DNA of 64,000 nucleotides from Octopus vulgaris (GCA_951406725.2 OX597823.1:10602001-10666000), one strand, 5' to 3'. Positions 4,540-50,894 are shown, counted from the first letter of the stretch. Translations and numbers: made by a program. The notes: a model not told the origin generated them from the letters alone.

Positions 4540-4811
4540 ATTGTTGTATTTCGGAATGGTCATTTTGCCAGTTTAGCCAATAAAAACACACGCACTATAT
4601 ATTTGGTGTTATTTTGCTTCAGTGTTATTTATTTTTTACATTAATCTTAATCTTATTTCGGCCAGAGTTCTTTCGTCACACTCCTGTGACCGCATCAGTG
4701 GTCCTTTGTTTTCTTCTTTCTTATTTGTGTCTCTCCTTACTAACCGTCAGCCATTTTGTATTTCTATTTATTGGCTAAACTGGCAAATTGACCATTCCGA
4801 AATACAATAAT
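4540..4811. repeat. fold-back insert with ~45-bp inverted arms in (TA)n
   Basis: 4540-4584 is the reverse complement of 4767-4811; a second copy of the arm is at 37459-37522. Confidence 0.85.
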
Positions 4812-5904
4812 GTTTCAACACACGACTTCACATAAAAAAATCTTGCACAACAAATATATAAACGTGTATATATATATATACACGTTTATATATTTGTTGT
4901 TTATATATATATATATATATATATAATTTATATATATATATATTATATATTATATATATATATATATATATATATATATATATATATATATATATATAAT
5001 TTATAGCAAAAAAAAATATAGAAAAATTCTTTGCTACCAGTGGTCTAACGAGAAGGAAAAATTAGTCAATAGACTATATATTATTCATAGAAAAATATAT
5101 TAGTGGTTTGGAGTTTAACTGCTCTTTCTAGTGAGTCAGATGTCCTATTATGGTCATCTCTTATGTGTTTAAATGCACACTATATTTTTTCTATGAATTA
5201 TATATATATATATATTCCGAATTAATGTAGATGTGTATAGAATAATGTATCAGTTGATATGGTATGGTTTTCATGTTTTTTATTATCGTATTTAATATTT
5301 TTTCCGTGTTTAAGTGGGTTAAACATTACTAAATACATATTCTTTTAATGCTTAACATACCTCAACATTGTAAAAAAAAATTTAAATACAATAATAAAAA
5401 ACGAGGAAACTAAACCATATAATTTAATTCAATTGATATATATATATATATATATATATATATATATATATATATATATATATATAGATAGATATAGATA
5501 TAGATATACATACATATATATATATAGATATATACACATATGTATACACACACACATACATACATATATATATATGATATAATATATACACATATGTATA
5601 CACACACACATACATACATACATATATATATATATATATATATATATATATATATATACGTATATCCTTTTGTATATATGAGAGAGAAAAACTTTAGATT
5701 CCTAAACCGCTTCCCCACAGACTCCCTTCGTTCCCAGCGCCCATATATAGTCCACTCACAGGGAGCGTTACTGGTCAGTTTAAGAAGCTTTGTCTTAACT
5801 GTATCGAGAAAGAGAGAGAGAGAGGGAGAGAGAGAGAGAGAGAGAGAATAATTATTGATGAATTTGAAAAGATTTTTTGTAAAGTCATTCTCTTATATAT
5901 ACAT

Positions 5905-6232
5905 ATCGTAGAGACGGACGAAATGCTGCTAAAAATTTGCTCGGCGTGCTAGTGGTTCTACCAGCTAACCACTCGTCATCTAGTACCTAGTTTATCGATC
6001 CCGAAGAGATGAAAGGCAAAGTCGACGTCGGTGACATTTGAACTCATAACGTAATGATGGACAAAATGCTGCTAAGTACTTTACCTGGCGTACTAACGAT
6101 TCTTATTTCTTTATTGCCCACAAGGGCCTAAACACATAGAGGGCAAACAAAGACACACAAAGGGATTAAGTCGATTACATCGATCCCAGTGCGTAACTGG
6201 TACTTATTTAATCGACCCCGAAAGGATGAAGG
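5905..6232 (-). mobile_element. degenerate SINE family C copies
   Basis: GATGAAAGGCAAAGTCGAC and GTACTTATTTAATCGACCCCGAAAGGATGAA core. Confidence 0.7.
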
Positions 6233-6239
6233 AAGGATG

Positions 6240-6473
6240 GAAGGAAGCAAGCAAGCAAGCAGGTAGGCAGGCAGGCAGGCAGGTAGGTAGGTAGGTAGGT
6301 AGGCAGGTAGGTAGGCAGGTAGGTAGGTAATACGTACGTAAGTACGTACGTATGTAGGTTGGTAGGTAGATAGGTAGGTTTATGTATGTAGGATGTACGT
6401 AGCTACGTGCGTAGGTTGGTAGGTAGGTAGGTAGGTAGGTAGGTATGTAGGTAGGTAGGTAGGTAGGTAGGTA
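6240..6473. repeat. (AGGT/AGGC/AAGC)n tetranucleotide microsatellite
   Basis: Directly visible. Confidence 0.9.
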
Positions 6474-6499
6474 TACATGTATGTGTACACTTGTGCCAT

Positions 6500-6710
6500 T
6501 TTATGTTACGGCTCTGCGACTTTTAAAATGGCTTACAAATTCTGGCAACATTTCTGCATGAAATTTTGCATTGAGCTTGTCAAATATGCTACCGAATATC
6601 GAATCAACCGGGTGGCTATTCTCAACATCATTGAGTGTTTTATTTCCTTTTTCCTACATCGGGGACAACGAATTCCTGTCTGACCATGTGGCTGGCTACG
6701 AGTACACATT
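6500..6710 (+). pseudogene. internally deleted mariner transposase remnant
   Basis: MAYKFWQHFCMKFCIELVKYATE resembles the mariner N-terminus (QR.CIKFC..LGK.ATE); DNEFLSDHVAGYE resembles FL..IITGDE. Confidence 0.5.
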
Positions 6711-47484: not shown

Positions 47485-47776
47485 TATCACGTGATCACGT
47501 GACCGACCGGACCATCAGATGTTGTTACACATCGCTGGTCACAATGCCTTCGAATGACGCCCACCCGTTGGCTAAGCGAGCAGGCCAACAGAAGAAAGAG
47601 TGAGAGAAAGTGTGGTGAAAGAGTACAGCAGGGATCACCACCCCCTGCCGGAGCTTTGTGGAGCTTTTTAGGAGTTTTCGCTCAATAAACACTCACAACG
47701 CCCGGTCTAGGAATCGAAACCGCGATCCTACGACCGCGAGTCCGCTGCCCTAACCACTGGGCCATTGCGCCTCCAC
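47485..47776 (-). mobile_element. SINE family B, tail type 2
   Basis: Homologous to 1135-1448. Confidence 0.88.
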
Positions 47777-48707
47777 ACACACACACACACACACACACAC
47801 ACACACACACATATATATATATATATATATATATGAATGTATATACACACACATAATACTTTGTTTAAGTAATTCCGTTCTAAGGCATTTGTGTGTGGGT
47901 GTGTGGGTGTTAAATTCGGGGTGGAGGAATGGGGGTCAAAGCAAATAATAGTCAAATTTATTGTAGTATTCGTATTGACTAGGAGACTGAGTTTCGCCTG
48001 ACACCGTTTTCAACCGGTGTATTTGCGTTTTTGGTGATAACCCGATAATACTTCCGTGATAAGCGCAGTGTTTATTTTCTTGCAGATGAAGGACTAGTAT
48101 GTCCCTAATAGAGAATGCTTTTAATGGAATCGATACGCCTTTTTTTTTTTTTTTTTTTTTTGTCTGTGGTATCTAGGTAGCGTGTGGATGGATATATGGA
48201 AGAGAATGTGGAAGGATAGAATTATATACGTAAATATGGGTGTTGCTGGGCGTTGCGACATGTTGAAGGTATACAGAAGGAAAAACAAACTGAACCCAGG
48301 AGCACGTCTTAATCGATATATATATATATATATATATATATAAAATGAGATAGGGGTTGAAAATTCAACCCACCATGGGATAATATATATCCAATATACT
48401 GCTAGATAGGTACCCAACAAAATTAATACATAGATGTTAAAAATTGTCAAACAATCAGTTCATCTATTGTATTATATGGGTAAAGGTAATAATATTACCG
48501 TAAATTAATACTACAAAATTAGAGAATGGAGAAACATACTTAAATCAGTAAAACATCAACTATCTGATGATACTCAATCTATACTTTAATACACCATTAC
48601 ATATGAGTAAAGGCAATATATAAAATGAAATGAGATATACAGTAATAGTAAAAAGATAAAGAGATATAAGTAAAAAATTTCAAATATAATATGCAAATAA
48701 ATCAAAA

Positions 48708-48815
48708 CTGACAGCTGTTTCGGCAGTGAGGGCAGTCATACCTCATTTAACCTATAAGCCATAAAGGCAGGTATAAATGAGGCATTAACAAGGATGCCCC
48801 ACGGCCTCTTCAGAG
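48708..48815 (-). ncRNA. type-I hammerhead ribozyme (mirror copy)
   Basis: Reverse complement of 49851-49958. Confidence 0.75.
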
Positions 48816-49850
48816 AATTAAATTAAATTTATTATAATAGTGAAAAATATTATATAATCATATACATATAAATATAAAAATATAAAAATGTAAAATATAA
48901 AAACTTATACATCATAATGCTACACTTATATAATATAATACACATTTGTACAAAAAAGGAAGGTAAACAGAACAAAATAAAACAAAATATATAACAGTGT
49001 ATATATTAATATTAATAAGTACCGATATTATACATATTTGGCTAATAGTTTTTTTTATAAAAAAAGGCTAACACATATGGAGATGAAAAATAATAATTAA
49101 AACCATGGTACAGTTCATAAAATTCTAAAGCTATAAAAGTTAATAAAAATTACTATTAATATTAATAATAATAATAATAATAGTAATAATAATAATAATA
49201 ATAATAATAATAATAATAATAATAATAATAATAATAATAAAAAATAATAAAAATAGATACAGTTAAGTTAGCACCAAGTCCATCCTTTCAAGATCGAAAT
49301 AACTATGAGTTAAGAAATGCTGACCACTAGGTAAAGAAAATTTAGATTACAGCATTTCTTAACTCATAGTTATTTCGATCTTGAAAGGATGGACTTGGTG
49401 CTAACTTAACTGTATCTATTTTTATTACTTTTTATTATTATTATTATTATTATTATTATTATTATTATTATTATTATTATTACTATTATTATTATTATTA
49501 TTAATATTAATAGTAATTTTTATTAACTTTTATAGCTTTAGAATTTTATGAACTGTACCATGGTTTTAATTATTATTTTTCATCTCCATATGTGTTAGCC
49601 TTTTTTTATAAAAAAAACTATTAGCCAAATATGTATAATATCGGTACTTATTAATATTAATATATACACTGTTATATATTTTGTTTTATTTTGTTCTGTT
49701 TACCTTCCTTTTTTGTATAAATGTGTATTATATTATATAAGTGTAGCATTATGATGTATAAGTTTTTATATTTTACATTTTTATATTTTTATATTTATAT
49801 GTATATGATTATATAATATTTTTCACTATTATAATAAATTTAATTTAATT

Positions 49851-49958
49851 CTCTGAAGAGGCCGTGGGGCATCCTTGTTAATGCCTCATTTATACCTGCC
49901 TTTATGGCTTATAGGTTAAATGAGGTATGACTGCCCTCACTGCCGAAACAGCTGTCAG
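49851..49958 (+). ncRNA. type-I hammerhead ribozyme with extended stem II
   Basis: CT-CTGAAGA(49853)-GGC...GCC-GAAA(49945)-C-AGCT-GTC^AG: complete core, GUC triplet, palindromic stem III ACAGCTGT; stem II pairs GTGGGGCA/TGCCCTCAC and ATGCCTCATTTA/TAAATGAGGTAT. Confidence 0.78.
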
Positions 49959-50276
49959 TTTTGATTTATTTGCATATTATATTTGAAATTTTTTACTTAT
50001 ATCTCTTTATCTTTTTACTATTACTGTATATCTCATTTCATTTTATATATTGCCTTTACTCATATGTAATGGTGTATTAAAGTATAGATTGAGTATCATC
50101 GGATAGTTGATGTTTTACTGATTTAAGTATGTTTCTCCATTCTCTAATTTTGTAGTATTTATATATATATATATATATAATTTCAACAATTGAGGGTAAA
50201 ATTAATTAATTATTAATCAATTTCACCAAGTGTTCAGTATGCAAAGGGACCATTTAAGGCGAATTCAAATTATTAC

Positions 50277-50894
50277 ATTATATAAAAGGGCTTAGTAAAA
50301 TAAATTACTTCGCCGCATACTGAACTCATTAGAAATAGCAGCTAAAAAACTTTTTTAAAGCTATTTCTAATACTTAAAGAAAATCTCTCTCATATATAGC
50401 GTTTGCTTAATTCAACTCACAAAAGTTTGGGGTAAGGACATTAAAAAATCAAATGCTAAGGTTATTTGAGTACGTACGTTTCAAGATTAGTCAAAACAAC
50501 ATTTCTCTCTACAACTCAGAAATTCCTTGGTTTGGATTTGGAAACACTGAAAGTAAGAACATACCCTTTCGAAGATCCGCTCTTAGTTAAGAGCGGATCT
50601 TCGAAAGGGTATGTTCTTACTTTCAGTGTTTCCAAATCCAAACCAAGGAATTTCTGAGCTGTAGAGAGAAATGTTGTTTTGACTAATCTTGAAACGTACG
50701 TACTCAAATAACCTTAGCATTTGATTTTTTAATGTCCTTACCCCAAACTTTTGTGAGTTGAATTAAGCAAACGCTATATATGAGAGAGATTTTTTAAGTA
50801 TTAGAAATAGCTTTAAAAAAGTTTTTTAGCTGCTATTTCTAATGAGTTCAGTATGCGGCGAAGTAATTTATTTTACTAAGCCCTTTTATATAAT
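50277..50894. repeat. 0.62-kb near-perfect palindrome (2-bp centre at 50586)
   Basis: ...GATCCGCTCTTA gt TAAGAGCGGATC...; left extension 50179-50276; (TA)n on both sides. Confidence 0.95.
50655..50706 (+). ncRNA. hammerhead-like motif with U at core position 6
   Basis: TGAG-CTGTAGA-GAGA...TCTT-GAAA-C-GTAC-GTA^CTCA: all three stems pair, palindromic stem III loop; the mirror copy reads TTGTAGA. Confidence 0.6.

Follow-up and report, generated by a model that had tools for sequence, protein, structure and literature searches.

The stretch of DNA analysed here covers 64,000 nucleotides (nt) of Octopus vulgaris (GCA_951406725.2 OX597823.1:10602001-10666000) and is referred to as the window. It has a GC content of about 37% and is dense in microsatellites and short interspersed nuclear elements (SINEs). 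Beside a truncated Penelope-like element (PLE) with a remnant of a GIY-YIG endonuclease, and at several other places, it holds eight fold-back inserts, which are inverted duplications situated mostly in (TA)n tracts. The inserts are numbered 1 to 8 along the window, and their families carry the same numbers. A preliminary description had presented them as a diverse system of PLE derivatives. The eight inserts are very probably insertion units made by PLEs, and they are likely the dead-on-arrival, 5'-truncated 3' ends of several PLE families. Their architecture and their hammerheads support the link to PLEs that had been proposed.

Architecture of the fold-back inserts

Inverted arms are present at all eight places (Table 1), which had been picked beforehand for having arms. 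Arm significance was assessed with dinucleotide shuffles (100 per insert, six short inserts only), and in this preselected set the observed arm score was reached by no shuffle. The weakest scores belong to inserts 2 and 4 (32 for both, against shuffle maxima of 24 and 25) and are marginal. An insert end was counted as TA-flanked if it lay at most 5 nt from a TA tract of at least four units. By this measure 14 of the 16 ends are TA-flanked, compared with 1.8% of non-tract positions, and the suggested targeting of (TA)n is upheld. The only two ends without a TA tract are both those of insert 4, which has (CA)n on the right and just 'tata' on the left. The eight are mutually unrelated except for weak AT-rich matches, in agreement with the earlier statement that their sequences mostly differ.

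A one-sided unpaired extension, or tail, is found in seven of the eight inserts, so the extension that had been described is confirmed except in insert 4, which has none. The extensions of inserts 1, 2, 3, 5, 6, 7 and 8 are about 55, 84, 30-41, 39, 55-59, 164 and 98 nt long. Insert 1 had been delimited as 4540-4845, which cuts its 55-nt extension short, as this reaches 4866. On folding, tails 2, 7 and 8 end in a hairpin (z -2.8, -4.1 and -3.0), and the other five of the eight folded tails are ordinary; a terminal hairpin common to all tails was therefore rejected. The two arms diverge at 2 of 45 positions in insert 1 and 4 of 43 in insert 6; those of insert 7 are separated by three substitutions and an indel of 6 nt, those of insert 8 by one substitution and an indel of 2 nt.

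Edges of TA tracts throughout the window were also scanned for an inverted partner within 2 kb (score at least 30). Such a partner occurs at 22 of 133 edges, against 5.7% of 2000 control positions, an excess that was not used as support since SINE pairs and simple repeats account for many of the 22. The scan recovered inserts 1, 2, 5, 6, 7 and 8 and the palindrome at 4847, and it disclosed no further PLE-type insert at the TA-tract edges of the window. At 8703-8743 a TA-flanked fragment is joined to a SINE, and its part at 8716-8743 is a relative of insert 2's outer end.

Table 1. Inserts, related copies and hammerhead motifs of the window
Feature	Position	Strand	Description
5'-truncated Penelope-like element	3206-4522	+	C-terminal GIY-YIG endonuclease remnant ~3205-3543, 3' region, minimal hammerhead 4392-4419
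Insert 1	4540-4866	-	long tail-less copy 4540-4766, short inverted arm 4767-4811 with 55-nt tail 4812-4866
Insert 1 arms	4540-4584/4767-4811		45 bp, 2 mismatches, spacer 182
Insert 1 hammerhead	4665-4698		carries A9C
Tail-to-tail mini-palindrome	4847-4900	.	perfect, 54 bp; final 20 nt of insert-1 tail mirrored across (TA)7
Insert 2	4999-5198	.	arms 5083-5105/5178-5198 (23 columns, 2 gaps); 84-nt extension with terminal hairpin; weakest case
Insert 3	5216-5437	.	old degenerate arms 5257-5328/5346-5420 (75 columns); 30-41-nt extension on left
Insert 4	7962-8302	+	21-bp inverted copy on 5' side, tail-less
Insert 4 arms	7962-7982/8282-8302		21 bp, 2 mismatches, spacer 299
Second family-4 copy	30629-30790	+	5'-truncated, 3' end as insert 4, without inverted arm, flanked by (TA)n and (CA)n
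Insert 5	35692-35837	-	near-perfect palindrome, arms 35692-35742/35747-35798; 39-nt tail at right
Relative of the 3' region of the GIY-YIG element	35988-36400	-	carries the same minimal hammerhead, then (TA)n
Insert 6	37121-37365	+	arms 37176-37218/37326-37368, 43 bp, 4 mismatches, spacer 107; 55-59-nt tail at left
Second family-1 copy	37461-37522	-	arm and 26 nt of spacer, tail-less, abuts (TTA)n; mariner fragment next
Insert 7	48343-50159	.	~164-nt tail 48343-48506; arms ~815 bp, 48507-49322/49350-50159; loop 27 nt; internal (TAA)n
Insert 7 hammerhead core	49853-49956; mirror 48710-48813	+; mirror -	looser scan
Insert 8	50179-50894	.	98-nt tail 50179-50276; arms ~309 bp, 50277-50585/50588-50894; 2-nt loop 50586-50587
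Insert 8 minimal hammerhead	50659-50702		A6U in both arms

Hammerhead motifs

The statement that the inserts often carry hammerheads holds in part. Full minimal hammerheads are found in inserts 1, 7 and 8, partial ones were recognized by eye in inserts 4, 5 and 6, and inserts 2 and 3 have none. A strict minimal-hammerhead descriptor matches inserts 1 and 8 (null mean 0.015; two or more matches in none of 200 shuffles). Over the 64 kb it gives four matches, three of which fall within TA-flanked PLE-like segments totalling 5.9 kb, a result equalled by 0 of 200 shuffles. These three are insert 1, insert 8 and the 3' end of the GIY-YIG element, and the fourth (17612-17679) lies outside such segments. 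Insert 7 is matched by the looser scan only, with a canonical core, a palindromic helix III and a stem I of just 2 bp. At position 50511 of family 8, 100% of the aligned contig depth differs from the window, which gives the family a canonical CUGA(A/U)GA core. The CUGANGA core of insert 4 is conserved in the second family-4 copy, but GAAU comes next. The fold point of insert 5 is the internal hairpin preceding the 3' half of a hammerhead (GAAAC..GUC). All the hammerheads of inserts 1, 7 and 8 point outward to the ends, which makes the units head-to-head. No hammerhead family was among the Rfam matches listed (150 of 157), and the microRNA matches were rejected as simple-repeat or hairpin noise.

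The neighbouring Penelope-like element

The element at 3206-4522 has a tail-less end in (TA)n at 4522 and carries A6U in its hammerhead core. Relatives of its GIY-YIG piece were found by HMMER search, and one of them, P0072, has RVT_1, a CX2-5CxxC linker and, at its C terminus, a GIY-YIG domain. A word-index search gave no longer relatives of this piece, and a cluster look-up gave names for none of five proteins. The combination of a PLE reverse transcriptase (RT) with GIY-YIG was found for this neighbour only. The copy at 35988-36400 extends about 130 nt (35988-36118) beyond the point where the 3206-4522 copy stops, so the coding lineage in the window has two 3' ends and a long tail. Its core reads CUGCUGA, compared with CUGUUGA in the 3206-4522 copy; both copies are without an inverted arm and are only distantly alike. 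The inserts had been called non-coding derivatives, a label that is not supported as stated, as ordinary 5'-truncated copies of coding elements look alike and the GIY-YIG-coding lineage has the same two 3' ends. The 3' region of the 3206-4522 element includes a tandem array at 3905-4217 (110 bp, 2.8 copies). A PGLN-like match at 57210 was discarded because inspection gave no endonuclease context.

Parent elements and a single template

The families of inserts 7 and 8 were surveyed with contigs from four runs of two organisms (A and B), aligned on 49530-50640 at 85% likeness. Part of 48000-51000 is present in 20 of 24 listed runs (nine studies, four organism labels). The runs gave 4002, 9190, 864 and 2356 aligned contig pieces, with all 30 bins covered in every run, so both families are abundant in organisms A and B and have diverged there. 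In metagenome contigs, two scans for exact motifs returned zero matches.

Contigs span the tail/arm boundary of family 8 at 50277 (e.g., records 1, 2, 11, 12, 14 and 24), which indicates that the tail belongs to the parent element; such contiguity in other copies was established for family 8 only. Forty contigs (1, 24, 2 and 13 by run, all four runs being represented) match from 50583 rightwards and have a common upstream loose end, among the 24 loose-end rows listed of 364. These contigs show that the family-8 parent continues beyond the fold of insert 8. Across 50583-50590 the parent reads TTA-GT-TAA on the plus strand. Therefore, the 2-nt loop is part of the arm without a tail, TTA at 50583-50585 forms a microhomology of 3 nt, and the junction of insert 8 is located on a natural 3-bp inverted micro-repeat. 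Variable 5' truncation with common 3' ends is seen in the two family-4 copies, in the family-8 parent that passes the fold and in the two copies of the GIY-YIG family, which are few copies rather than a genome-wide count. Direct partial tandems, or pseudo-long terminal repeats (pLTRs), are absent from the window; one 630-nt contig, present in runs X2 and X4, contains two pieces of family 8 arranged in go-back order. The summed depth of family 8 drops from the 3' part toward the fold, a quantity that is not copy number and was not used.

Thirteen family-variable positions, picked from 34 rows of the contig-difference table, were checked in both arms, and 10 are identical between arms. The 10 include all five minority alleles (50311, 50507, 50511, 50086 and 50118), that is, positions where a different base makes up 70-100% of the contig depth and is missing from the mirror arm. 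The three discordant positions (49718, 50514 and 50101) look like later single-arm mutations. Because the minority alleles are common to both arms, the arms were copied from one template.

Tail polarity and a possible route of integration

On sequence comparison, inserts 1 and 8 have the tail on the shorter mirror arm and the loop on the arm without a tail, an assignment that can be called firm. In insert 1, the spacer hammerhead is directed at the end without a tail, and in the copy at 37461-37522 the left, tail-less arm continues into 26 nt of the spacer with 61 of 62 nt identical. Together, these two observations make the loop of insert 1 continuous with the tail-less arm. Inserts 5, 6 and 7 lean to the same polarity, which is suggestive, on the basis of half motifs in inserts 5 and 6 and of the loop peptide PLGKENLDYS in insert 7. 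This peptide ranks 17 of 127,936 positions against a profile of the PLE C-terminus on the plus strand, versus 571 on the minus strand, a weak match in which the gap was chosen post hoc. The polarity of inserts 2 and 3 is not readable.

If a complementary DNA (cDNA) began at the tail, folded back and ended early, its loop should be continuous with the tail-bearing arm. Inserts 1 and 8, whose loop lies on the tail-less arm, thus exclude a simple one-step snap-back from the tail with an early stop. Snap-back synthesis had been put forward as the step that finishes integration. The micro-repeat of insert 8 does bear a self-priming signature, but self-priming cannot alone finish the insertion in inserts 1 and 8, because the tail sits on the strand that would need to be copied from a template that lacks it. 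For the observed polarity, either a second priming has to take place at the tail or the hairpin has to be opened by a nick.

The first of these possibilities can be drawn as a route with two primings. The GIY-YIG endonuclease would nick both strands of (TA)n. A first, long cDNA would start at an internal AT-rich site, stop early and prime itself on a short micro-repeat, while a second cDNA would be primed at the nick of the opposite target strand and start at the outer tail end. The folded-back sense strand would then anneal to the tail-bearing second cDNA, which would capture the other flank, and fill-in would give the order flank-tail'-arm'-loop-arm-flank. If only one priming succeeded, a plain truncated copy with or without a tail would result, as may be the case at 3206-4522, 35988-36400, 30629-30790 and 37461-37522. 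The route draws on the two start sites and the two-strand extension reported in vitro for Poseidon of the lizard Anolis carolinensis (Frangieh et al. 2024, PMC11167929). In that work Poseidon nicks and extends both target strands at AT-rich DNA, two RT start sites bracket the tail, and the PLE protein is a predicted dimer. The joint claim, that the inserts are PLE-made units and were built by two primings, is evenly balanced.

Several observations weigh against this account. No RT or endonuclease open reading frame (ORF) was tied to any insert family among inserts 1-8, and inserts 2 and 3 are without a hammerhead, full or partial. The contigs on 49530-50640 gave no strand-change joints and no common-end places, and none of the 32 pieces listed of 16,509 bridges the fold. 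The in vitro system of PMC11167929 is a lizard Poseidon with a 30-40-nt tail. Host repair can perhaps do a similar fold-back, judging from the SINE pair at 29099-29468.

Alternative explanations

The arms could also derive from one cDNA of PLE origin. It would start at the tail, fold back and copy itself; the endonuclease would then nick the hairpin at the TA-like tail/arm boundary, strand displacement would open it, and repair would join the free end to the other flank. Such a course yields the observed polarity and identical arms every time, and it agrees with the terms 'self-priming' (PMC3846280) and 'EN-mediated resolution' (EN, endonuclease; PMC8557442). In five of six two-armed tailed inserts listed, the end without a tail falls on AAT or ATT, although blurred by the TA flank, and these ends resemble the ATT cut motif given in PMC11167929. 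On the other side, the two RT start sites lie at the tail limits in vitro, and the window has plain truncated copies, tail-less and arm-less, which need no hairpin. This nicked-hairpin course and the two primings give the same product and are inseparable here; the former is considered unlikely, though still a serious candidate.

Twin priming without fold-back would link the ends of two independent cDNAs through microhomology. In its favour, extension of both strands is seen in vitro (PMC11167929), and insert 8 has its 3-nt microhomology. However, twin priming predicts the tail on the longer arm in about half of the cases, whereas two of two firm and three of three suggestive cases go one way. 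In addition, the arms have minority alleles in common, and in run X1, perhaps the source sample, just 1488 of the 4002 contigs are at least 99% alike to the window, so that two RNAs from different loci are unlikely. This explanation is improbable.

Helentrons and their HINE derivatives have fixed short asymmetric inverted repeats, a 3' hairpin and a Rep/helicase partner. Some or all of the inserts might be non-autonomous DNA elements of this type, or miniature inverted-repeat transposable elements (MITEs), inserting in TA with fixed, possibly asymmetric, terminal inverted repeats (TIRs) and a 3' hairpin. The short arms (21-45 bp) of inserts 1, 2, 4 and 6 and the hairpin-ended tails of inserts 2, 7 and 8 fit such elements, but arms of 309 and 815 bp and the hammerheads do not. 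A fixed-TIR MITE was rejected for families 4 and 8, given that an arm-less 5'-truncated family-4 copy exists and the family-8 parent passes the fold; these two families favour a variable fold point, as the preliminary description had supposed against ordinary MITEs. DNA elements are quite improbable as a general explanation, and for inserts 2 and 3 they are possible.

Host repair could seed fold-back synthesis at self-complementary (TA)n or adjacent breaks during or after insertion, whatever the element. The mini-palindrome across (TA)7 at 4847-4900 and the SINE fold-backs at 29099-29468 and 20880-20918 speak for it. It leaves unexplained why a family-derived tail occurs on one arm only, and the inversion is centred within the element and off the TA tract. 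As a source of the eight inserts, host repair is very unlikely. The palindromes at 4847-4900 and 29099-29468 may be products of host fold-back; the former is either a second tiny insertion or a snap-back on the self-complementary TA run. At 29099-29468 a 5'-truncated SINE pair lies head-to-head outside a TA tract; it includes some 40 nt of mirrored flank and is 93.6% alike across 374 columns. Isolated 39-40-bp hairpins are present at 7396-7435, 10644-10683 and 20880-20918, the last being a SINE head folded at its own hairpin beside a short TA run.

Assembly or library chimeras, in whose favour no contig among those listed bridges a fold, are barely credible, as the arms of inserts 1, 6, 7 and 8 differ by a few mutations, which makes read-level chimeras unlikely and at arm level does not bear out the artefact that had been feared, while spacers reach 299 nt and the unit is biologically known.

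Comparison with known elements

The preliminary description had inferred a new system, but the element class is already known. Endonuclease-bearing PLE units consist of a pLTR and an adjacent inverted, 5'-truncated copy, with a 30-40-bp tail at either end and a (TA)n bias (Craig et al. 2021, PMC8557442), and palindromic PLE junctions have been read as self-priming (Arkhipova et al. 2013, PMC3846280). Like this unit, the inserts have a head-to-head inverted copy, a one-ended tail, a palindromic junction and a (TA)n target without a visible target-site duplication. They differ in tails of up to about 164 nt against the 30-40 nt reported in PMC8557442, a norm exceeded in five of the seven extension-bearing inserts. 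They also have the tail on the shorter arm where this is readable, and they form eight families without a tied ORF. As in Poseidon, a hammerhead lies upstream of the tail; however, the Poseidon tail lies within the ORF start, whereas the inserts are known without a tied ORF, and the inverted copy is not explained in the part of PMC11167929 available. Inverted pLTRs and 3' extensions serve as curation marks in PMC8969392.

Known minimal hammerheads have a short palindromic helix III and an extra base before stem II and occur in opposite-strand pairs 100-700 bp apart (PMC4209133), and the motifs of the inserts share these properties. Unlike them, the predicted motifs here have altered cores, with A6U both in insert 8 and in the GIY-YIG element and A9C in insert 1. 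Non-LTR retrozymes, which have been tied to PLEs (bioRxiv 10.64898/2026.07.22.740005), resemble the inserts in being non-coding, hammerhead-bearing and PLE-derived. They are head-to-tail tandem arrays, whereas the inserts are single head-to-head units, and no tandem array was found at any of the eight.

Naiads are characterized by an N-terminal GIY-YIG domain and no canonical hammerhead. An assignment to this clade was rejected, as the coding neighbour has a C-terminal endonuclease and family 8 has a canonical core. The canonical-type hammerheads point to clades with a C-terminal endonuclease (Neptune, Nematis and Poseidon) over Naiads, and the hammerhead-less inserts 2 and 3 could be Naiad ends. 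The supplement of PMC8557442, in the text at hand, includes two Octopus Naiads with a (TA)n preference; five short insert motifs (one strand each) are absent from that text.

What is new here is a modest mechanistic lead: tails to about 165 nt, one template for both arms and, in inserts 1 and 8, a loop on the arm that lacks the tail. A search of PLE literature, which did not extend to the possibly relevant 2005/2006 reviews, a 2004 endonuclease paper and the figures and supplements of PMC11167929 and PMC3846280, yielded no rule on tail polarity and no mention of tails longer than 40 nt. Each short insert records an order of events in the making of the inverted copy and one-sided tail of PLEs. 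In a genome rich in such inserts, counts of tail polarity, junction microhomology and arm identity could separate the models. The hairpins would also need no second repeat to form double-stranded RNA (dsRNA), which bears on the octopus dsRNA and hyper-editing signal. Octopus is reported to have an exceptional long-dsRNA potential and hyper-editing, and the repeats responsible are without annotation in the part of PMC5625713 available. A tentative and rather doubtful extension would hold for octopus PLE families generally. In these families, the tail would always lie on the shorter, secondarily made arm and be family-specific, long (55-165 nt) and hairpin-ended. This would fix the order of events, in which an internally started cDNA folds back and the tail then captures the second end. 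Hairpins of up to 0.8 kb would be a main source of the dsRNA potential and A-to-I hyper-editing of octopus (PMC5625713).

Other features of the window

The commonest SINE, when translated, matches a protein named for Octopus bimaculoides (75% identity). The 3' part of a SINE is present at 51977-52533 as three head-to-tail copies of 186 bp that are 98% alike. A mariner-like fragment (Transposase_1, E 7.6e-4) occupies 37520-38020, and 24055-24390, without a Pfam match, is presumably a Tc1-like fragment, to judge from its likeness. An element at 40676-43270 has repeated 5' blocks and a gag-like ORF (41486-42787) with a CCHC knuckle and one stop. The element also includes a 70-bp tandem array at 42846-43208, which has a unit with UGAUGA followed by a GGAGG/CCUCC hairpin, which is hammerhead-like without GAAA. 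Another tandem array (116 bp, four copies) lies at 27211-27689. A weak U1 snRNA match on the minus strand at 63734-63881 (34.6 bits, under the gathering score of 69.5) is probably a pseudogene.

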